NCBI GenBank assembly: GCA_946478525.1
Contig: CAMLCH010000006.1
Coordinates: forward strand, 22,210-86,209
Length of the DNA stretch: 64,000 nucleotides
Direction: 5' to 3'
Source of the DNA: Snodgrassella alvi
GTDB taxonomy: Bacteria > Pseudomonadota > Gammaproteobacteria > Burkholderiales > Neisseriaceae
The translations under genes and the position numbers were made by a program. Shown here one piece after another: positions 31,737 through 52,448 of this stretch. The notes beneath the pieces are model-generated. The model did not search any database. It was not told the DNA's origin and saw only the letters and a list, made by a program, of their open reading frames with translations. How positions within the stretch are numbered: position 1 is the stretch's first letter; each line of letters opens with the position of its first letter.

Positions 31737-32249
31737 ATGTCTGTTAATAAAGTCATTTTGGTTGGTCGTCTGGGTCGTGACCCCGAAACACGATATATGC
31801 CCAGTGGCGATGCAGTAACCAATTTTTCTATTGCTACTGATGAGCAATGGCGTGATCGTAACGGAGAGCGCCAAACGCGTACGGAATGGCATAACATTAC
31901 CCTTTTCGGTAAATTAGGTGAAATTGCCAGTCAATACCTGCGTAAAGGTAGCCAGGTATTTATTGAAGGTCGTATTCAAAGTCGTAAATACAATGGTAAA
32001 GACGGAATTGAACGTATAGCATACGATATCATTGGCAGTGAAATGAAAATGCTGGGTAGCCGCAATGATAGCGGCAGTACCGGTTACGATCAAATGAGCG
32101 GAGGAGGTGATTACGCTCCGAGCACAAATACCAATCAGGGAAATTATGATACCGCCAGTGCACCACCGGCTGCTCCACGCCGTCAAGCTCCGCGTCCAAC
32201 GCCCGCAGCAGCACCGGTTGATGATATTGATGATGATATTCCGTTTTGA
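31737..32249 (+). CDS. ssb: Single-stranded DNA-binding protein
   Basis: OB-fold N-terminus ([22 protein letters not shown]), a Gly/Pro/Gln-rich linker, and an acidic tip DDIDDDIPF. Confidence 0.95.
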
Positions 32250-32285
32250 GTGAGAAAGATCAAATTGATCAAAACCAGAAATATT

Positions 32286-32322
32286 AAACCCTTTAAATAT
32301 TAAAATATTTAAAGGGTTTTTG
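32286..32322 (+). terminator. Rho-independent terminator after ssb
   Basis: 15-bp AT-rich stem aaaccctttaaatat / atatttaaagggttt with loop taaa, then tt. Confidence 0.7.
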
Positions 32323-32391
32323 TATAATTCAAGTAATGTAGTTGTAATATTATAAATATACAAATTTTATTACCATGGAAAGAAAACAACT

Positions 32392-32823
32392 ATGAAAAAA
32401 ATCCTTTTTTTATTATTGCTTCCAATTACCTGTTTTGCACAAAATGAAATAAGTATTTTGGGGGAAATAGGTACTCGGAGAATTAGTTCAGTCATAAATC
32501 ACGGAGCTGGTTCATATTGGATAAATAGAGATCTAAAACAGGATTCAGATCGTTATGGTAGTTATTTAAATCTTAATGCTGATGGTACTTTCACTTCATG
32601 GAACTTTATGCCATGTGATAACGATTGTTTTTATTGTTCGCACGGTACCTTTAAAAAAGTTGATGAAACACATGTACGATTACAAATCAATTCATATTCA
32701 TATTCACAATCGGAACCTTGCCCAAGTGGAGGAATAACAGATACAAAACCACGAGATTTGGGTATTTTTGAAATTAAATCCTCTGAAGATGGTTATGAAT
32801 TAATAAAAGTAAATAATAAATAG
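32392..32823 (+). CDS. Small secreted Cys-containing hypothetical protein (143 aa)
   Basis: Signal peptide MKKILFLLLLPITCFA/QNE and a mature part with a CDNDCFYC cluster. It lies in AT-rich DNA. I recognise no family. Confidence 0.55.
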   Translation: MKKILFLLLLPITCFAQNEISILGEIGTRRISSVINHGAGSYWINRDLKQDSDRYGSYLNLNADGTFTSWNFMPCDNDCFYCSHGTFKKVDETHVRLQINSYSYSQSEPCPSGGITDTKPRDLGIFEIKSSEDGYELIKVNNK

Positions 32824-33116
32824 AAAATATATTCAAAAACAATAATTTATTTACCATTATTATGAATGGTTCTGCTGCTTTTGGGTTAGGAGATATTAAG
32901 CCAGAAGTGGCTCTTCCAGTCATGAGATGATATTTCTTTTCTACAAATTCCTTCACAATTGCAAATGATCGAAATCTGCAAAATTTTTGTGGATTTCGAC
33001 CACTGTCCTTTAAAACTACGTTAATTCAGGATCTGTCGGAATAATCCAAGTTGGGTTGATTTAGCCGTATAAGTAATAGTAATGCGTTTAGATATGGGCA
33101 GTATCAATTGTTGTCG

Positions 33117-33605
33117 TCACTTGGGAACAGGTGTAAGTTGATATTTACTTTTACCCGTTAAAAGTTGGTTAAATTTATCTAAAAACTCTGCTACATCTTC
33201 ATCTTTACGCTCTGGAATGTCCAAATTAAAAAAATTAGAGTCGATTTTATTAGCACGAAAATAAATTTTATACCCCGATCGATCAAACTCTGACACATCA
33301 TACATTTTTTCTGCTAAAAATATTTTTGGGATTGAATCAAAAAAATCATTAATACCAGTGTACATACTAATTGCTTCAACGTCTTCGCACCGAGTAACAT
33401 TATTTTTTTTAGCACAAATTTTCTTGTATTTAGTAATATATTTAGGTGTAATCCTAAAAAGTAATATTGAGTTAGGCTCTTCAGGTATTGATTGATAGAT
33501 ATTAAATTCAGCATAATCAGGATGGAGATAGATTATTTTTGCATCAGCAATAAAACCTATATTTAAAAGAAAAAATAACCAACTCCAAAAAAATTTTATT
33601 TTCAT
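33117..33605 (-). CDS. Small secreted hypothetical protein (162 aa)
   Basis: Signal peptide MKIKFFWSWLFFLLNIGFIADA, located in AT-rich DNA. A degraded paralog of its 3' end lies at 34402-34575. Confidence 0.55.
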   Translation of the reverse strand: MKIKFFWSWLFFLLNIGFIADAKIIYLHPDYAEFNIYQSIPEEPNSILLFRITPKYITKYKKICAKKNNVTRCEDVEAISMYTGINDFFDSIPKIFLAEKMYDVSEFDRSGYKIYFRANKIDSNFFNLDIPERKDEDVAEFLDKFNQLLTGKSKYQLTPVPK

Positions 33606-34401
33606 TATCGCTCCTTAATCTATTAATTCAATTTCAGGATTTTGTAGCTTATAGTCGCTTATGTCTCCATCATACATTCGCTAATCTATTTTATCCAGAA
33701 ATATATTTGTTTTACATCATAATAGCTCTGAATAGGATAAGTATTCAATATGATATTACATTGGGCATCAGCAAAATAACTTTCTATTTTGTATGCCACA
33801 AAATTATTATGTTATCTGGGATCAATAAAATCCAATCCGGATAAAAATAGAGTTGGGAGAGTGTTAATGAAGTTGTATTTATCTTGGTACTGAAATTTTC
33901 ACTTTGTGCCCAAGAATGAAATTTGCCATGCTTTAAAGAGCAGCTTTTGACATGATATCTTGTTACCAAAACAGCAGTCATTGTATAAAACAGCATTGTC
34001 AGAAAAAAACAATTAATTCATATATTTTATGACAAAGAGCATTAACGAAACAAATTTTTAATTTTTGTACTACTAGTTTAAGGTGGAGGAATATAGCTTG
34101 ATTTTCTTAAAAAGGTTTCTGGAACAAATTTAAAAATATCATCAAGATCCTAGATATGGTTCTTAAGGACGATCCAAAATCAATTTATACTAAAGTCAGT
34201 ACAAATTGTGTGTGTAAGAATGATTGAGTTGGCAGATATTTTATCGATAATGAGCGTTCGGATAAAACTTAATGACCATATTTACGATCCTCAATAGTGA
34301 TGAAATATTCTGATGACTTGGTATTTAAGCCTTTGTCGTAAAGCTCAATAATAGTCATATCAAAAACAGTAAAATAGGTTTTAATGTTTATGTTATTTGC
34401 T

Positions 34402-34575
34402 TTATTTTTCCATTATTAAAGGTTTAAATTGATATTTACTTTTACCTTTATCTGTTAAAAGCTGGTTAATTTTATCTAAAAAGTGCGCTACATCTTTATC
34501 TTTACGATCTGGAATGTTTGAACAAAACCAATGACAATTGTTCAGAAAATTAGCGCAAAAATGCACTATATAGCT
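34402..34575 (-). pseudogene. Truncated paralog (C-terminal ~57 codons) of the 33117-33605 gene
   Basis: My minus-strand translation is SYIVHFCANFLNNCHWFCSNIPDRKDKDVAHFLDKINQLLTDKGKSKYQFKPLIMEK*. The intact gene has GYKIYFRANKIDSNFFNLDIPERKDEDVAEFLDKFNQLLTGKSKYQLTPVPK*. Clear nucleotide similarity runs about 34421-34518 versus 33130-33220. An in-frame stop lies immediately upstream. Confidence 0.7.
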
Positions 34576-35184
34576 TTAAATATCATGTATTTTTTATGAA
34601 ATTTGCATATAATTAAAACAATTGATGATTAAAAATAGATTTTAAAATAAAGTATTTTTATATCAGATTAAATGGTCTACTGAGTCCCATTGATGCTGTT
34701 ATTTTTTACCAAACAATTAAATTTCCATTTTTTACCACTAGACCATATTATTTCTCTGATTGTATTGTTTCTGCTATTAATTTCTTTTTCTGTAAATATA
34801 TTTTAAACTAATTCTGAATTCAGTAATGAAGTCATCTGCTTTCTCAATAAACATTTATGTCAGTAATGCTATTCCAGAAACTGGGTGAATTCAATAAAAC
34901 CATATGAAATAATTAAATATTCAGATTAAATATATCTTTGAAAAATAGAGATTTCTAAAACATGTATGTTGTCTATCGAAGCTGGCTAAAAACTCAGTCT
35001 ATTCATAAATCAGGCTTTGGTTTGCCCAGTTAATCTAAGTAATGAGAATAAAAGCTAATAATGAAAAATCAAAAAATTTGGGTTAATTTCAAGTTAGATT
35101 AAATTGGCTGATTATTCTATAAAATAGTCGTTTTAAACGTTGCTATTTTATACCGGTCTGCTAAAATAACACATATGGAACTGC

Positions 35185-35218
35185 GCAAGCCGCCAAACAC
35201 TGGTCGGCTTGCTTTTTG
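35185..35218 (+). terminator. Intrinsic-terminator-like hairpin in the greA leader
   Basis: Stem gcaagccg / cggcttgc (35185-35192 and 35205-35212) followed by ttttt, about 55 nt upstream of the greA ATG. Confidence 0.5.
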
Positions 35219-35272
35219 TTTTAATGCGAAATACCGTTGTTGCACTGAACGGCGGTATCTTGGAGAAATACG

Positions 35273-35749
35273 ATGCAAAAAATTCCGTTGACCGTGATTG
35301 GTGCCGATTTGCTAAAACAGGAGCTGCAACAACTCAAAAGCGTGGCTCGTCCTGCTGTAATTGAAGCAATTGCTGAAGCACGTTCGCATGGCGATCTGTC
35401 GGAAAATGCAGAATATGAAGCAGCTAAAGAAAAACAGGGCTTTATTGAGGGCCGTATTGCTGAAATTGAGCATAAACTTTCACTGGCACACATTATTGAT
35501 CCAAAAGAAACTAATGCTGATGGTAAGGTAGTTTTTGGGGCTACTGTGAAAATGCAGGATCTGGAGACAGAAGAAGTGGTTAGTTACCAGATTGTTGGTG
35601 AAGATGAAGCGGATATTAAACAAGCAAAAATCTTTGTTGGTTCGCCCATCGCACGCGCATTGATTGGTAAAGAAGAAGGTGATGTAGCTGAAGTGCAAGC
35701 ACCAGGTGGGGTGCGCGAATATGAAATTCTTGAAGTGTTTTATATTTAA
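35273..35749 (+). CDS. greA: Transcription elongation factor GreA
   Basis: [22 protein letters not shown] ... [14 protein letters not shown] is the classic GreA coiled-coil with its acidic tip. Length is 158 aa. Confidence 0.95.
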
Positions 35750-44673: not shown

Positions 44674-45291
44674 ATGAAACATCCGGTAATGACGGTTGCT
44701 CAAATGAAACATTGGGAAGCTGAACAAGATCGTCAAGGTTTCAGTTATGCACGAATGATGGAAAATGCCGGCAGTCGAGCAGCTATGGATATGGTACGGC
44801 GATTTGCCCAACAGGAAGTGCTGGTGCTGTGCGGTAAAGGTAATAATGCTGGTGACGGGCTGGTACTTGCACGGATATTGGCAAGCAAGGGTTGGCCTGT
44901 GAATGTGATGTGGTTACAGGGACAGCAACTTTCTGTTTTGGCAGAGGCTAATCGTTTGCAATTGCCTTCCGAAATACAAATAGTGTCTGTAGATAAGCTG
45001 ACTAACTGCTTATCTTCGGTAGGTATGGTGGTGGATGCTGTTTATGGAACCGGGTTTCACAGCTCTTTATCACCAGTTATCCAGCAATGTTTTGCTGCTG
45101 TGGGCAAAAGCAAAAGTTATAAAATAGCACTGGATATGCCTAGTGGTGTTGGTGGTGATGGTGGAATCATTGCCGATGGTTGTTTTCAGGCACAATTAAC
45201 CTATGTTTTTCAAGCATTAAAACCCGCACATTGTCTGCCAGAAGTGCAGGCATTATGTGGAGAAATTAAGTGTGTTGATTTACTGGATTAG
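44674..45291 (+). CDS. NAD(P)H-hydrate epimerase domain protein (YjeF N-terminal domain only)
   Basis: CGKGNNAGDGLVLARIL, VDAVYGTGF and ALDMPSGV motifs of the YjeF_N/NnrE domain. The ORF stops where the dehydratase domain would begin in fused Nnr proteins. Confidence 0.75.
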   Translation: MKHPVMTVAQMKHWEAEQDRQGFSYARMMENAGSRAAMDMVRRFAQQEVLVLCGKGNNAGDGLVLARILASKGWPVNVMWLQGQQLSVLAEANRLQLPSEIQIVSVDKLTNCLSSVGMVVDAVYGTGFHSSLSPVIQQCFAAVGKSKSYKIALDMPSGVGGDGGIIADGCFQAQLTYVFQALKPAHCLPEVQALCGEIKCVDLLD

Positions 45292-45705
45292 TAGGGATAG
45301 TGTTGATAATGATCACAATATAACTCAGCAAGCACGTTAGCAAAGATGTTTTTGAGTGTGAAAACGCTATGAAGGTGTATTAAATCATGAACTAATAGGT
45401 TAGATAAGATTTTAACTATAAAATAATCAAAACAACGAACCATTATCATGCGGGAAATTTAACAAAAATAAGCCATATAAATGTTTATAAAGATTTTATT
45501 GTGATAATTAAGGAGTGATAGCCAAATAACTAGGTATTGGAAAAGCCAGCAGGTTATCAATCAGAAATGTTGGCGTATCATCATATCTCTTAGCAATATA
45601 CTATATTTTAAGGAGGTGTAAAATTCACTTTATAATATATAGTCTTACCAAGTTTAATTTTTAAACTATGGTTTATGCTTATTTGGAATATATTTGGAAG
45701 ATAAT

Positions 45706-46644
45706 ATGGATACATTAAGTTTCTCTTTGGATAATCTAAAACGAAGAATTTATGACCCTAAAACACGTAAGAATTTTGATGAAATCTATAAATGCTATGT
45801 TAATGGATGCTGCCGTTCAGCTATGGTGATGTTATGGTCAGTAGTTGTGTGTGATTTATTATTTAAATTACAAGAAATGATAGATATTTATTCAGACAAA
45901 CCTTCTAAGGAAATAATAAATGATATCAAAGAGGAACAAGTTAAAAACCCATATTCATCTGTATGGGAAAAGCACATTTTAGAAAAGGTTCACAATAAAA
46001 CACAGTTACTAGATACCGCCTCAAAAGAAATACTGAATAATATAATGAAAATCAGGAATATGTGTGCTCATCCAGTTTTAAATGATAATAATCAATTGTA
46101 TGAACCTACAGCCGATTTGACTAGAGGTTATATTATAGATAGTGTGAATTATTTATTAGCAAAACCCCCATTTCTTTCCCAAAAAATAACATCTACACTT
46201 TTAAAAGATATAGAGAGTATTAAAAATATTTTTCCAGATGATAAATCATTTAAGATATATTTAAATTCAAAGTATTTTAGTGCTTTAAGAGGTGATGATG
46301 TAGCAAAAGTATTCCGAGATTTGTGGAGAATAGTGTTTAATAAAAATAATGACGATACCATTAAAAATCGAGATATCAATTACAGAGCATTAATTATTTT
46401 ATATGATAAAGAAAAAAATATTATTAATGACGAAATACAGCAAAATCAATCAATATATTCAAATATATTAACTGACGACGATATTATTGAAAAACTGATT
46501 TTATTTTTATCCATAAAACCCATGATATACCGAGCGTTAAGTACGGCAACACAACAGATTATACGTAAGGCATGTGAAGTTAGTCTGAATAATTTTGCCG
46601 TAGCATTTTTTTTATCAGAATCAGAACACCAGAAAATCATTTAA
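45706..46644 (+). CDS. Hypothetical protein with an Rx4H (HEPN-like) signature; reading frame ends just after a T8 tract
   Basis: The alpha-helical N-terminal ~150 aa end in NNIMKIRNMCAHPVLND (an R-N-x3-H motif). The gene is very AT-rich and lies in an island between core genes. ATG 45706 is preferred over TTG 45694. Confidence 0.55.
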   Translation: MDTLSFSLDNLKRRIYDPKTRKNFDEIYKCYVNGCCRSAMVMLWSVVVCDLLFKLQEMIDIYSDKPSKEIINDIKEEQVKNPYSSVWEKHILEKVHNKTQLLDTASKEILNNIMKIRNMCAHPVLNDNNQLYEPTADLTRGYIIDSVNYLLAKPPFLSQKITSTLLKDIESIKNIFPDDKSFKIYLNSKYFSALRGDDVAKVFRDLWRIVFNKNNDDTIKNRDINYRALIILYDKEKNIINDEIQQNQSIYSNILTDDDIIEKLILFLSIKPMIYRALSTATQQIIRKACEVSLNNFAVAFFLSESEHQKII

Positions 46645-47033
46645 AAGATGTTATTGGGAAGATAAAGTCAAGCTCCATTGATCAGTTTAAGAATACTATT
46701 ATTGGTGAACAACAATTTAAATTAATAGAAAATATATGTTTAGAACTAGGCCGACTTGATATATACAGGGAATTAAGGATAATGTATTACGTTATTAGTT
46801 CTTCATTTTATGAAGCTGATCATCGCTTTTCTGAATGTATTGAACCATATTCAGATAGTTACACTGAACAAGAATTGATTATATTGTTAGAGGGTATTAA
46901 CTCTAATAGCCAAATTTATGGAAGAGGCAATTTTAGTGATGATGATAAAATAGTTATCGAAAAAGCTATGCAAAAATATCCTAACATATCATTAATGAAC
47001 TATGATAATTTAAAAAATAGATTAGATATTTAA
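46593..47033 (+). pseudogene. Downstream reading frame, likely the detached C-terminal part of the HEPN-like gene
   Basis: My translation shows the frame open from 46593, 189 nt upstream of its first ATG at 46782. It overlaps the end of the upstream ORF across the T8 tract. Confidence 0.5.
46606..46613 (+). repeat. T8 homopolymer at the junction of two overlapping reading frames
   Basis: Counted directly from ...gtagcattttttttatcag.... A ninth T would fuse ORF 45706-46644 to the frame that runs 46593-47033. Confidence 0.9.
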
Positions 47034-47641
47034 TTATTTGTAGGATTTTTATTCTAAATTAATGAAGGATATTATTATTTTTGTATGATATTTGAAGCAT
47101 CACTTATTGTCTATAATTAGTATTTATGTAAATATAATCTCTAATTTATTCCAAATTAATCAGCCATGTCCAAATTTTTTTATTTTATAAAATTAGTTAT
47201 GATGGCAGAGAGTTTTTATTTAGAATCCCCGATAATGGGATGAAGTTTGATAAAAACTGAGCTGATATTTTATTTTTCAGCAAGGAAAATGCTGTGCAAA
47301 TGACAGGAAAACACGGGTTTTAATAAATCAATATTTGACTGGATAGATGAAAATCATCATTTATCTGATAAGGAAGTATAATATCTTTTAGATGGAATTA
47401 AATCATAATTGCAAATTAGGCGTTTAGATATCTTTATTCAAACGCATTATCAATAACTGTGCAAATGATTTGTTATAAATAATCCAGATTGATAATTTTT
47501 AAAATAGATTAATTTTTATATTATACTTAGTTAATATAACTATTTTTGCTGCGTTTGTATTATCTGAATATCACATTGTCTTGGCTCTGATAGTGGAGAT
47601 ATTTTTGACTTACCTGACGGGGCTGCGAATCATGATTGGTA

Positions 47642-47956
47642 ATGGATATGGACAAATCAGAGTTTTCTCATGAGCAACTAGTTGAGATTAACCAGAGAGC
47701 TAATGAATTAGGTAAGGCTCTTGATCAATTTGCTCTTGATCTACGACATAAATATCATTTTTACCCTGATCTAACTGTTCATGCATGTGGAACAGCTTTA
47801 GGTAATATGATTAACATAAATATGCTTGTCTATCATCTGTGTCCTGAATTAGCACCACCATATTTACATGATACTGATTATTCCGTTGTTGTTGAAAGGA
47901 TCAAACAAGAAAAACAAGAGTTTGATAATGAGATAGCGCGATATGAACAGAAATAA
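47642..47956 (+). CDS. Hypothetical protein of about 104 aa
   Basis: ORF with ATG at 47642 (the track starts at TTG 47636), followed by a hairpin and T run. I recognise no motif. Confidence 0.4.
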   Translation: MDMDKSEFSHEQLVEINQRANELGKALDQFALDLRHKYHFYPDLTVHACGTALGNMININMLVYHLCPELAPPYLHDTDYSVVVERIKQEKQEFDNEIARYEQK

Positions 47957-47980
47957 GCTGCAAAATCTTTGTGAAATTAA

Positions 47981-48008
47981 AAAAAGCCCCAAACGAGGCT
48001 TTTTTTGT
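47981..48008 (+). terminator. Terminator-like hairpin (aaaaagcc / ggcttttt)
   Basis: A short GC core flanked by an A run and a T run, directly after ORF 47642-47956. Confidence 0.5.
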
Positions 48009-48259
48009 TTAGCTTACAGTCTATGACTTAATAGCGCTTTAGCATGTACCATAAAATTTAATAGCTCGTTTATGATACAGACAGCTTGTAATGGTTCTAG
48101 CGCCCCTGTTTCAAGCCACATTTTATCTTCTGCCAGAAAGAGCAGGCAGCGGCATAAGCACTATAACTAATACCTTGCATGCTAATATAATTAAAGCAGC
48201 TATTTTAAGATTTAATTATCTAGTTAGTTAGTTTTAATCATTGTGCTAATCACAATTAA

Positions 48260-49645
48260 TTATAATGTCCGCGAATAATGCGCTGCAGTTCGTTTCTGGC
48301 GTAAATAATAATCAAATATCATCGCAATGTTACGAATAAGCAGCCTTCCTTTCGGGGTAACATGTAATTTATCTGTGCTCAGTTCCACTAAACCTAGTTG
48401 TGCCAGTTGTTTCAGATCAGTCATTTCAGCAGCAAAATAATGCTGGAATGGTTGTGGAAGTATAGTGGTGTAATCCAGATAATTTAGTTCAAAATGGCAC
48501 ATTAAATCTTGGATAACGCGCCGGCGTAATAAGTCATCTGCATTAAGTTGATAACCTCGCAGAACAGGCAGGCGGTTTTCATCTAGGGCTTGATAGTAGG
48601 CGTTTAATTCTTTTTCATTCTGGCTGTAAATATTGGCAATTTTGCCGATACTGGATACGCCGATAGCAATTAAATCGCAGTCGGCATGAGTCGAATACCC
48701 TTGAAAATTGCGTTGCAGGCGATTTTCTGCCAGTGCGATAGCCAGCTCATCTTCCGGTTTGGCAAAATGATCCATACCAATAAATATATAACCATTTTCC
48801 AACAGGTAATGAATGGTATTTTGTAATATATCCAGTTTGGTTGTGCTATCAGGTACAGCTGCGGTATCGATACGACGTTGAGGTTTAAATAAATGTGGCA
48901 GATGTGCGTAGTGATACATGGCAATACGGTCAGGCTGTAAATCCACTATATGTTGTAGTGTTTCCTGCATGGAAGATTCGCTCTGGTGGGGAAGACCATA
49001 AATTAAATCCACGCTAATAGAATGGAAACCATTGTCACGCGCCGCTACGATTACGGTTCGGGTTTCAGCCTCACTTTGGACGCGATTAACTGCTTTCTGG
49101 ACGATCGGATTGAAGTCCTGAATACCCACGCTCATACGGTTAAAACCCAGTTCTCCCAGAAAGGCGACAGTTTGGGCAGAAACGTTGCGTGGATCTATTT
49201 CTATTGAGTATTCACCATCTGTAGTGAAGGTGAAGTATTTACGGATTGTAGTAAAAATATGGTTTAGCTGTTCGGTATTGAGAAAGGTTGGTGTTCCTCC
49301 GCCGAAGTGCAGTTGCGCAAGCTGTGGTTTACCAATCCAGTGCTCTGCTAAAAGTGCCAGTTCTTTGTCTAAATATTGGATATAACGATCTGCTCTGGTG
49401 GTGTCTTTGGTTATAATTTTATTACAACCGCAATAATAGCAAATGGTATTGCAAAATGGGATATGCACATACAGTGATACTGGTTTGCTGCCAATATGTT
49501 GCTGTAGCTTAGCCTGTAATTGGCTAGCAGTAAATTCAGGATAAAAACGGTCAGCAGTAGGGTAGGAGGTATAACGCGGGCCTAAGGAAGGCAATGATGC
49601 GATTAAAGCGCGATCAAATTCTATGGCATATCTAAGTGTTTTCAT
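48260..49645 (-). CDS. hemN: Oxygen-independent coproporphyrinogen III oxidase (radical SAM)
   Basis: CxxxCxxC cluster FCNTICYYCGC, the HemN N-terminus (YTSYPTADRF), and a length of 461 aa. Confidence 0.9.
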   Translation of the reverse strand: MKTLRYAIEFDRALIASLPSLGPRYTSYPTADRFYPEFTASQLQAKLQQHIGSKPVSLYVHIPFCNTICYYCGCNKIITKDTTRADRYIQYLDKELALLAEHWIGKPQLAQLHFGGGTPTFLNTEQLNHIFTTIRKYFTFTTDGEYSIEIDPRNVSAQTVAFLGELGFNRMSVGIQDFNPIVQKAVNRVQSEAETRTVIVAARDNGFHSISVDLIYGLPHQSESSMQETLQHIVDLQPDRIAMYHYAHLPHLFKPQRRIDTAAVPDSTTKLDILQNTIHYLLENGYIFIGMDHFAKPEDELAIALAENRLQRNFQGYSTHADCDLIAIGVSSIGKIANIYSQNEKELNAYYQALDENRLPVLRGYQLNADDLLRRRVIQDLMCHFELNYLDYTTILPQPFQHYFAAEMTDLKQLAQLGLVELSTDKLHVTPKGRLLIRNIAMIFDYYLRQKRTAAHYSRTL

Positions 49646-49902: not shown

Positions 49903-50643
49903 ATGATAAAAATACACAAACAGAGTGAAATAGTACAAAATTTATGTGAAAAATGCTCTTTTCATATACTGTGCATGCCTGTAATGCTGAATGATAAAGA
50001 AATAAATGAACTCGATAGTGTGATTCGTCATAGCAGACGTTTGAAAAAGGGGGAATATCTTTTTCGCGCTGGTGAGCCTTTTCGTTCAGTATATGCCGTG
50101 CGTACGGGCTTTTTCAAAACTATTGTAAATAGTCAGGATGGTCGCGATCAGGTTACCGGATTTTTTATGTCCGGGGAGCTACTAGGGCTGGATGGTATTT
50201 GTAATAATTTTTATAGTTGTGATGCAGTCGCTCTGGAAGACAGTGAAGTATGTGAACTGCCGTTTATGAATCTTGAACACGCCGGTAGTCTGATTCCCGC
50301 AGTGCAGACACATTTTTATAAGCTGATGAGCCGGGAAATTGTGCGTAATCAGGAAATTATGCTGATGCTGGGTAATATGCGTGCGGAAGAGAGACTGGCT
50401 GCATTTTTGATGAATTTATCACAACGGTTAAACAATCGTGGTTTTGCAGCCAATGACTTTATTTTGCGCATGTCTCGTGAAGAAATAGGCAGTTATTTAG
50501 GGCTTAAGCTGGAAACGGTAAGCCGCACTTTATCTAAATTTCAACATGAAGGTTTGATTAAGGTTGAGCATAAGCATATTCAGTTGGTACAGCCATGGAT
50601 TTTGCATGAAATCGTGCTTAGTTGCCAAAAAGCAGTAGGTTGA
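49903..50643 (+). CDS. fnr: FNR/ANR-type oxygen-sensing CRP-family transcription regulator
   Basis: N-terminal Cys cluster CEKCSFHILC, a cNMP-like domain, and a C-terminal HTH (EEIGSYLGLKLETVSRTLSKF, with E--SR as in FNR). It is divergent from hemN. Confidence 0.9.
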   Translation: MIKIHKQSEIVQNLCEKCSFHILCMPVMLNDKEINELDSVIRHSRRLKKGEYLFRAGEPFRSVYAVRTGFFKTIVNSQDGRDQVTGFFMSGELLGLDGICNNFYSCDAVALEDSEVCELPFMNLEHAGSLIPAVQTHFYKLMSREIVRNQEIMLMLGNMRAEERLAAFLMNLSQRLNNRGFAANDFILRMSREEIGSYLGLKLETVSRTLSKFQHEGLIKVEHKHIQLVQPWILHEIVLSCQKAVG

Positions 50644-51665
50644 TATTTCGAAAAAATGGGATGGTAGCCGTTTTCTGCGCAAAAGCCTTTTCTTATTTCA
50701 ATTTAGGTAGATGGTTTGCATTTACCATAGTCTTTAAAAATATCGCTCAATATTTTTCAGAATAAGCAACGTATGTTGCAATAAAATATGATTCAAAGTC
50801 TGTATTAGTTAAAATAAAACTCTTATACTCTGAATATCATGAAAAATCTATTTATAACAACTGGAGTAGAAACTATAAAAATTTTAGTCAACAGAATAAA
50901 GATATAATATGACTATGTTATTTATATCAGATTGGATAAATATCCATCAACAGAAAATAAGATATGTTAAAAAGAAAGCTTCGTCAATTGGGCTAATGAT
51001 GCTTATAAAAATAGTTAACAATCTGAAATAGCTAAATTAAATGCTTCAGGAGAAATAGCAGCCCATCTTTATTTTGCTGATCATTCTATAAGCTCTAAGT
51101 GCCTAATGATTCATTGCGTAGATGAATAAAAATAAATAATTAGACGTACAGGTTTAATATGTTAAATGAATCTATAGCAAAGGTATAAATATTACTTAAG
51201 ATAAAGAAAACCAATATTTCCTGATAAAGACTATTTAGGTGCCTAGTTTTATTATTTTAACCTGATGGTACACTTGAAGTAACTAAAATAGTTCAATGTG
51301 ATAATTATAAAGTCATCCAATCAAAGAAGGTGAGTGGATGGCAAAAGATCCTGTGAATATCTCATATAATTGGCTTAAAATGCCTATATTTGCTAGCAAA
51401 ATGATTATCTTGAGATGAAACACAGGGAAAAGCAAAAAATAGCAGAAGGTTTTCAATTCCCCGAAAATTGAACAAAGATAATGATAATCCTAGAATAAAA
51501 TATTATAAATATTTATTGGTTTCTTAAAATATTTTGCAATTACAGTTTTTTAGATCTGCAAATGTACATAATGGCCACCAATTGAAAAAGAGTATTGAGA
51601 GCCTGATTAAGGTCGCCAATATAACTTCATTAGCTTAATCAAAAGTTTCATTAATTGCGCATAAA

Positions 51666-52448
51666 TCAACCAAAATTGGCCATTGCGGCAAGTTTGAGTG
51701 TGTCTTTGCCATAAATCTGCGCAGTAAAGTGGCGCATCCAGCGTATTTTACGCAGGCTGGTTTGAATAATGGTCTGGGTTTGCTCTGGTTGCTGAGTAAT
51801 AAACTGATGCCATAATTGTAGTGCTTCTGTAGCAACGCCAAATTCAGTCATCAATTGTGCACCAGAATGCAGATAACACAATAAATCGCGCGCTTGGCAG
51901 TGCGGTAACGTCATGGCTGTAAGTGGATCATCCTCAAAATCGATAAATCCTATTTGTCGGTCATTAATAAAGATCATGTTACGAGCGAAGCACTCACTTA
52001 GATACTGTTGTTGCTGATGTACCTGAGCAATAGCATTAAGACCCAGTAACCAGCGTTGAAGCAGAGTTTGTTTTTCTTTACGGCACGCCCACCATTCTGC
52101 TTCGAGATTCTTTTCTCCGATATTACTAATCATGGTGGCGGTAGTTTGTTGTGCCAGTACTTTAGGCACACAGATACCGGCTTGTGAAAGTGCATGCAAC
52201 CGTTGTACTTCTGTTCGTAATGAGGAAACGCCTCCCAGATTGGGAACCGGTTGTAACAAGTTTATACCGGTAATTTGCTGGGCAAGTTTTAACAATCGAT
52301 ATCGCCACATGCTGTTACGTGTACCAGCCAGTCTTACCCAAACGACTTCGCCACTAGTTAATGTGTGCTTTTGCATTAATTTGCTTTGCTTGCCCAAGCA
52401 TTGCTGTAGTGCTTGCTGGTGAAAGGTGGAGTAATTGGTTTCTGACAT
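51666..52448 (-). CDS. Protein-kinase-like fold protein (LPS kinase / RIO-like family candidate)
   Basis: About 260 aa with an ...ARNMIFINDRQIGFIDFED... arrangement that resembles a catalytic-loop Asn plus a metal-binding Asp. The assignment is by eye only. Confidence 0.4.
   Translation of the reverse strand: MSETNYSTFHQQALQQCLGKQSKLMQKHTLTSGEVVWVRLAGTRNSMWRYRLLKLAQQITGINLLQPVPNLGGVSSLRTEVQRLHALSQAGICVPKVLAQQTTATMISNIGEKNLEAEWWACRKEKQTLLQRWLLGLNAIAQVHQQQQYLSECFARNMIFINDRQIGFIDFEDDPLTAMTLPHCQARDLLCYLHSGAQLMTEFGVATEALQLWHQFITQQPEQTQTIIQTSLRKIRWMRHFTAQIYGKDTLKLAAMANFG

Follow-up and report, generated by a model that had tools for sequence, protein, structure and literature searches.

What kind of gene occupies the AT-rich DNA between nnrE and hemN in the stretch analysed here (64,000 nucleotides, hereafter the window), and is it still able to work? 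The initial annotation had taken this island for a horizontally acquired module carrying a single HEPN-like effector for defence by abortive infection, interrupted by a frameshift and of an unusual module type. Our analysis indicates that the island holds a chromosomal homologue of the phage defence protein DARNA (also named PD-T7-3 or Dandelion) of Escherichia coli, and that the gene is inactivated in the window by one missing A at codon 307; we assign this reading a probability of about 0.8. The features on which it is based are listed below (aa, amino acids; ORF, open reading frame; ssDNA, single-stranded DNA).

45292–48259, no strand assigned: AT-rich lineage-specific island (GC contrast; similarity to Snodgrassella alvi loci ends at both edges)
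45706–46644, plus strand: ORF1, DARNA/PD-T7-3 homologue of 312 aa (codons 1–306, E307, then the out-of-frame residues HQKII and a TAA stop at 46642–46644)
45706–46182, plus strand: HEPN RNase domain, aa 1–159 (match to PDB 9wx2, AlphaFold2 model, Foldseek neighbours)
46054–46071, plus strand: catalytic motif R117-N-M-C-A-H122 (R117 at 46054–46056, H122 at 46069–46071)
46625–46626, plus strand: frameshift site at codon 307, with an A-run of two instead of the three in the intact sequence (GAAACA to GAACA; alignment with L009, L015 and L016)
46627–47033, plus strand: out-of-frame remainder, codons 308–442 and stop, distal ssDNA-sensor domain (PADLOC and PDB matches)

The gene extends over two reading frames. 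ORF1 encodes 312 aa from the ATG at 45706, or 316 aa from a TTG at 45694, and a second frame, which is open from 46593 to 47033, carries on the same protein. The PADLOC profile PD-T7-3 (PDLC04108) matched ORF1 with an E-value of 1e-107 over profile positions 3–306 of 432 and the second frame with an E-value of 5e-23 over positions 303–429, and both halves together span the whole profile. In a sequence search of the PDB, the 12-chain entry 9wxf, designated Dandelion, was matched by ORF1 (E-value of 8.5e-85) and by the second frame (1e-13); the latter also matched the Dandelion C-terminal domain in 9wwz (about 1e-13). The Dandelion sequence in the PDB shows no difference, over the 440 residues that align, from ORF1 in the Z-region of the E. 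coli prophage P2-EC30 (AJ512676.1; 100% identity), and a literature search under the name Dandelion returned nothing relevant. An intact conspecific allele (described below) shows 39% identity to the E. coli protein over 441 aligned positions (E-value of 3e-113), with about 50% in the first 310 aa, and the full-length alignment is collinear. On these matches, the gene is a member of the experimentally validated PD-T7-3/DARNA/Dandelion family. The PADLOC search proposed in the initial annotation thus gave a clear answer in both halves of the gene, as did the sequence search of the PDB. The Pfam search proposed with it gave none: Pfam, NCBIfam and PHROGs yielded no meaningful match for either half, and no Pfam model matches the intact allele or the E. 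coli protein either.

PD-T7-3 came out of a functional selection in E. coli; it confers protection from T7 and, to a greater degree, from T-even phages (PMC9519451; Vassallo et al. 2022). It was later renamed DARNA (Puteikiene et al. 2026, preprint, bioRxiv 10.64898/2026.02.22.705581). According to that preprint, which is also the source for the rest of this paragraph, E. coli DARNA consists of an N-terminal HEPN domain (aa 1–159) with R117x4H122 and a C-terminal Pds5-like helical domain (aa 160–456). The integrity of the homododecamer is required for activity, and F6A and N33A+E347A abolish it. The active sites are occluded by the loop 81–85, RNA is contacted by K69, R98, K201 and K204, and ssDNA is recognised by F368 and W406, with F368A or W406A abolishing activity. 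The enzyme cleaves tRNA anticodon loops, its trigger is ssDNA presented by the ssDNA-binding protein (SSB) of the phage and not by that of the host, and the outcome of activation is abortive infection (bioRxiv 10.64898/2026.02.22.705581).

Family members work as a single gene without an antitoxin, which explains the missing MNT partner that had made the module type seem unusual; it is in fact a known one, and the suggestion of a single-effector abortive-infection gene is supported by the family matches. Likewise, the C-terminal part of about 290 aa, in which no motif had been recognised, indeed has no Pfam match, but the residues after about aa 160 correspond to the known ssDNA-sensing domain. 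The intact allele and E. coli DARNA are of the same length class (442 and 456 aa) and share the two-domain layout, R117x4H122 at identical positions and the single-gene arrangement without antitoxin. F6, N33, E347, K201 and F368 are kept, and R98 and K204 are replaced by Lys and Arg, respectively. In contrast to the E. coli protein, the position of W406 is occupied by Gly or Lys, K69 is Glu in the haplotype of the window, the gene lies in a chromosomal core-gene slot of a Snodgrassella-like member of the Neisseriaceae instead of a P2 prophage hotspot, and the window copy is interrupted at codon 307. In other alleles of the lineage, Tyr takes the position of F368.

We found 358 family relatives across Gammaproteobacteria, Chloroflexi, cyanobacteria and Bacillota. 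Its copies are carried by 161 plasmids and by one P2-like prophage hotspot, and the DARNA family is clearly mobile. The closest relatives outside the species (53% identical; L021–L025, e.g. L021:1377-5727) follow a 997-aa DEAD/ResIII/SWI2_SNF2 gene at a distance of 25 bp, and an HTH_3 gene is close by. This helicase-family gene is probably a restriction subunit, and the setting looks like a defence-island context. Some of these contigs belong to the metagenome series that also yielded the species of the window.

The HEPN assignment of the N-terminal domain is taken as established, since a strong sequence match to a solved HEPN domain stands beside a structural result that, although weak, is in line with it. 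The crystal structure entry 9wx2 (Dandelion-hepn) matched aa 1–158 of ORF1 with an E-value of 1.3e-48. Across 36 aligned family sequences, with identities down to 34%, R117 and H122 never vary, so RNMCAH is no chance match, and the Rx4H signature noted in the initial annotation turns out to be a true HEPN catalytic motif. The structure prediction, which had also been proposed there, gave an HEPN-like AlphaFold2 model of aa 1–160 (predicted local distance difference test score, pLDDT, of 92; predicted template modelling score of 0.87). The model is all-alpha with seven helices, and the motif lies at the end of the helix 104–121. When it was compared with the PDB by Foldseek, the best natural matches were all HEPN proteins, namely 2hsb (probability of 0.99; template modelling score of 0.63, normalised on the target), 2q00, HepT (7bxo, 5yep and 6m6w) and AbiV (9bj7), and the other high-ranking matches were de novo designed helical proteins. 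The Dandelion entries did not appear among the results and are seemingly absent from the searched copy of the library.

HepT of the HepT-MntA (HEPN/MNT) toxins (PDB 5yep, 7bxo and 7ae6) has the same fold and an Rx4-6H RNase motif and is among the best structural neighbours. It differs from the window protein, which is three times longer and carries its own sensor domain, and no MNT nucleotidyltransferase antitoxin gene adjoins ORF1: none of the island ORFs matched a nucleotidyltransferase family, and the locus is not an HEPN/MNT module. The control of DARNA is by ssDNA sensing and not by AMPylation. AbiV (PDB 9bj6/9bj7), Csm6, PrrC, RloC and ApeA are likewise HEPN RNase effectors that stop translation during infection, and PrrC and RloC resemble DARNA further as anticodon nucleases; AbiV, as noted, is a structural neighbour of the model. 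However, these proteins show no detectable sequence similarity to the window protein and have other partners and triggers, and none of these has the Pds5-like C-terminal domain.

For comparison of alleles, the adjacent proteins FolB and NnrE were looked up as exact sequences, which yielded conspecific metagenome contigs; HemN, looked up in the same way, was not on record in the contig index. At the site of the window gene, contig L009 carries one unbroken reading frame of 442 aa (L009:3702-5030), and L016 has an intact 452-aa allele there. Ahead of the missing A, the window is identical to L009 over 980 bp (45635–46615). The T8 run at 46606–46613 was ruled out as the site of the frameshift because the alignment with L009 places the lesion in the A-run at 46625–46626. 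The frameshift stated in the initial annotation is thereby traced to a 1-nt deletion. A single ORF of approximately 430–456 aa that includes the C-terminal domain is present in L009 and L016 but not in the window. The 312-aa product is identical to RefSeq WP_303802426.1, annotated as 'hypothetical protein [Snodgrassella alvi]', and Logan and ENA contain this sequence as well, on two contigs. This hypothetical protein and the AT-rich orphan island around it can now be placed in a defence family of known mechanism and structure.

The window product keeps the HEPN domain, the gate loop (NPYSS, compared with DPYSP in E. coli) and aa 160–306. It is without residues 308–442, which include the counterparts of E347 and F368 (both conserved) and of W406 (Gly). 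Because the activity of E. coli DARNA is lost upon disruption of the dodecamer or upon F368A or W406A substitution, the window allele is most likely null and, by analogy, can most likely neither assemble properly nor sense ssDNA. The gene in the window is thus most likely a pseudogene, a dead copy of a known defence gene. The working defence module suggested initially is, in the window, a relic, and genome-based defence inventories should not count this copy as active.

By analogy with the steps shown for the E. coli protein, the intact 442-aa conspecific allele may act as follows. The N-terminal HEPN domains would pair to form composite RNase sites from R117 and H122, which the loop between helices alpha4 and alpha5 would close, and twelve subunits would build a two-layer complex. 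The protruding all-helical C-terminal domains would bind ssDNA presented by a phage SSB, not by the host SSB; this binding would lead to cleavage of tRNA anticodon loops, a stop of translation and an aborted infection. In the window, where one A is missing at codon 307, the 312-aa product comprises the HEPN domain and, of the C-terminal domain, the first half; with residues 308–442 it lacks the counterparts of E347, a contact between hexamers, and of positions 368 and 406, which serve ssDNA recognition.

Several points weigh against the reading of the locus as an inactivated DARNA gene. All steps of its mechanism are carried over from a homologue of 39% identity. The Foldseek E-values of the HEPN model are weak (0.25 and above), and with the model of the 312-aa product nothing was found below an E-value of 0.38. 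The position of W406 is Gly or Lys in this lineage and is not conserved across the family; therefore, the sensor may work differently. The missing A itself could be a sequencing error, in which case the locus would encode a working 442-aa DARNA. The lesion lies in a short homopolymer, and the identity of the preceding 980 bp to the intact L009 would fit such an error. Moreover, an exact look-up of ORF1 in the contig index found no record, and JGI metagenomes, when scanned for the exact pattern spanning the lesion, contained neither form (0 matches). We nevertheless regard an assembly or sequencing error as unlikely. The identical 312-aa product is present in RefSeq, Logan and ENA, although these records may rest on shared reads, and a run of two or three A residues is a weak error hotspot. 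In addition, the same gene carries four other knock-out lesions, at least three of which recur in contigs from different samples, indicating that loss of function is common in this population.

If the missing A is real, the 312-aa HEPN protein with its intact catalytic residues might retain some activity. It might function alone as a sensor-less or differently regulated RNase, or as a dominant-negative or regulatory partner, perhaps together with a separately translated C-terminal fragment. The product retains its catalytic residues together with the gate loop and the HEPN dimer region, the AlphaFold2 model of the 312 aa is confident (pLDDT of 90), and a downstream in-frame ORF of 83 aa starts from an ATG (46782–47033). 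However, this ORF covers only the last fifth of the protein, and E347, F368 and W406, which are required for the activity of E. coli DARNA, all lie beyond the frameshift. Other alleles of the species have K68*, Q78* or an 813-bp deletion, which destroy the HEPN domain itself and point to plain loss instead of a selected truncation, so that we consider a functional short form improbable. Still less probable, to a degree that we hardly reckon with it, is a programmed -1 ribosomal frameshift near CAG-AAA-ATC that restores the full-length protein at some frequency. The two frames do share about 50 nt, and the stop is immediately preceded by an A4 run, but no canonical X-XXY-YYZ slippery heptamer and no downstream structure could be read from the sequence, every other family member is a single ORF, as are the intact alleles at this site, and the haplotype is otherwise identical, the lesion being a simple, recent deletion.

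Besides its missing A, inactivation of the gene as a DARNA homologue took several other forms in the conspecific contigs:

K68* (AAG to TAG): L015 (DNA-level check)
Q78* (CAA to TAA): L027–L030 (DNA-level check; truncated product on 8 contigs)
1-nt deletion in a T5 run at codon 175: L031 and L032, two samples (DNA-level check)
813-bp deletion, equivalent to 45508–46320 of the window: L001/L005, L002/L007, L004, L006, L008, L013 and the GTDB representative metagenome-assembled genome (MAG) L017 (blastn)

Counting the window allele, this Snodgrassella-like species has at least five independent knock-outs of the gene. The 813-bp deletion, the commonest conspecific allele, takes out the upstream (promoter) region and codons 1–205, with a short microhomology (GATTT..TGTG) at the junction. 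The remnant contains extra stops and indels and is only 92–93% identical, which marks this allele as the oldest. Of the 15 members listed for the 90% cluster, 11 have the full length (442–454 aa) and occur on about 18 contigs. Truncated forms were found on about 15 contigs, besides 7 contigs with the deletion; roughly half of the observed gene copies are broken. The pairwise ratio of nonsynonymous to synonymous substitution rates between alleles is 0.65–1.0 (0.80 between the intact alleles of L009 and L016), compared with 0.05–0.12 for hemN on the same contigs. These ratios suggest that the gene evolves almost neutrally in the species, and, together with the independent knock-outs, that it is being lost or is cycling between intact and null states.

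The replacements are unevenly distributed along the gene. In codons 65–115, which correspond to the predicted RNA gate (alpha4-loop-alpha5), 12 replacements and 0 synonymous differences separate two haplotype groups, and codons 339–423 of the distal sensor show a mosaic of replacements between alleles. The variable positions 69 (Glu/Lys), 368 (Phe/Tyr) and 406 (Gly/Lys) align with K69 (RNA contact), F368 and W406 (ssDNA recognition) of the E. coli protein. Given about 22% synonymous sites, the probability of 0 synonymous differences out of 12 is roughly 0.05 under neutrality, and the counts are small. The pattern probably reflects relaxed constraint, possibly mixed with diversifying selection, and is no proof of the latter. 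We offer only as a tentative idea, which we think the less likely case, that the allele series records an arms race with phage SSBs combined with recurrent loss through an autoimmunity cost, and not simple neutral decay. If so, natural populations of a bee-gut symbiont lineage would document at this locus what an abortive-infection nuclease that senses SSB/ssDNA costs and how it benefits them. In any case, the natural variants (intact, two frameshifts, two nonsense mutations and one 813-bp deletion) form a panel for the part requirements of DARNA and its cost in a host-restricted gut symbiont. The family has already been characterised experimentally and structurally, and the allele series within the species is the only part that goes beyond the ordinary. 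Defence genes are often AT-rich, patchy in distribution and frequently degraded, and the result is otherwise ordinary.

Further differences were observed among the alleles. An 11-bp indel at 45680–45690, just upstream of the DARNA start, separates the two haplotype groups (window compared with L016 and L027–L030). In the other group, this indel opens an in-frame N-terminal extension (MVYAYLEDN-) that gives products of 452–454 aa. Allele P0175 has an in-frame duplication of Ser-Glu at the position of the frameshift in the window.

The surroundings of the island bear on its origin. The nearest named relatives of the NnrE protein are from Snodgrassella alvi and S. gandavensis (61–64% identity), and a scan of genome contigs with NnrE found one species-level GTDB relative only, an uncultured Neisseriaceae MAG. 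The loci of S. alvi have the same gene order as the window (ftsH, folP, glmM, dedA-like, plsY, folB, nnrE, then hemN, fnr and a 260-aa gene). Their nnrE–hemN slot contains a NUDIX hydrolase gene on the minus strand and no DARNA, and their nucleotide similarity to the window ends at 45287 and 48260. A decayed NUDIX gene surviving in the island was ruled out, as neither tblastn nor blastn detected a remnant. The island is present in some form in all conspecific contigs that reach the slot. From these comparisons, the island is a lineage-specific replacement that is fixed in the species and absent from sister species. The pattern is consistent with horizontal acquisition, and the folB–nnrE–hemN comparison suggested in the initial annotation thus upholds its view of an acquired, lineage-specific insertion.

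The boundaries and the low-coding parts of the island are defined by the following features:

44674–45291, plus strand: nnrE (YjeF_N/NnrE; Pfam E-value of 1e-31)
48260–49645, minus strand: hemN (Pfam Radical_SAM and HemN_C)
47034–47574, no strand assigned: non-coding spacer of 541 bp, GC content of 0.238, without recognisable feature

From the nnrE stop to the hemN stop, the GC content is 0.286, compared with 0.395 in the whole window and with 0.445 and 0.418 in the flanking nnrE and hemN. Only 0.07% of the stretches of equal length in the window have a lower GC content. No ORF longer than 55 aa is present in 45292–45705 and 47034–47635, and the description of an AT-rich and partly ORF-poor island was therefore correct. 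So was the statement that an MNT antitoxin, an integrase, a tRNA and clear att (attachment site) repeats are missing. No integrase-like ORF was found among the island ORFs and no tRNA in a scan of the window, and repeats of the att-like or inverted terminal kind, searched for in the island, were represented by no more than short AT-rich matches at chance level. With no integrase or recombinase, tRNA target or att direct repeats, the island lacks the hallmarks of an integrative mobile element. Rfam identified no family in the island at a permissive threshold, nor in the whole window at the gathering threshold. A promoter scan gave 24 sites, compared with 22 expected in shuffled sequence; since such sites are no commoner than in shuffled sequence, no promoter is claimed.

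A minus-strand ORF of 53 aa (45288–45449) overlaps the end of nnrE and is called as a gene (53–61 aa) in several metagenome contigs. It has neither homologues nor a family, and in such AT-rich DNA the call is probably spurious. In some conspecific contigs (L010:3460-4284, L011, L027:3006-3551 and L028), NnrE is shorter (181–182 instead of 205 aa). In L010, the 3′ end of nnrE is rearranged or duplicated, with the segment 45116–45403 of the window repeated after 45206. These short or rearranged ends indicate that the junction between nnrE and the island is also variable.

The distal part of the island has a composition and relatives of its own:

47575–48187, plus strand: separate 616-bp cassette with a 104-aa orphan gene and a hairpin (GC content of 0.365; match in Snodgrassella communis)
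47642–47956, plus strand: conserved 104-aa orphan ORF (strain comparison, homologue search)
47978–48007: terminator-like hairpin

The cassette shows 94.8% nucleotide identity to a segment at another site, between rpsO and pnp, in S. communis GCA_000695565.1. The housekeeping proteins of the window lineage and S. communis differ far more than this, which suggests that the cassette was recently exchanged. The nucleotide differences in the 104-aa ORF are synonymous in 3 of 4 cases in two strain comparisons and in 1 of 2 in a third, and the ORF is under purifying selection. Only 7 representative relatives were found among 1.8 billion proteins; Pfam, NCBIfam and PHROGs gave no meaningful match, and a sequence search of the PDB gave nothing. 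The ORF was ruled out as a partner or antitoxin of DARNA, because the counterpart locus in S. communis has no DARNA and the ORF is kept unchanged where DARNA is destroyed. The 616-bp segment looks like a recently exchanged mini-cassette; it does not belong to the DARNA system.

Two other AT-rich segments were observed in the window. A second island (32250–35220), between ssb (31737–32249) and greA (35273–35749), has a GC content of 0.284, the lowest of any 3-kb stretch in the window. It contains ORFs of 143 aa (plus strand), 162 aa and 70 aa (both minus strand), none of which matches a family in Pfam or PADLOC, and over about 1.2 kb no ORF reaches 70 aa. A spacer of about 1 kb (50644–51665; GC content of 0.28), free of ORFs longer than 50 aa, lies between an fnr/crp-like gene (49903–50643) and the 260-aa gene (51666–52448). 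Its counterpart in S. alvi (L018) measures only 126 bp, and the conspecific MAG L017 differs from the window in this spacer by an indel around 51227–51427.

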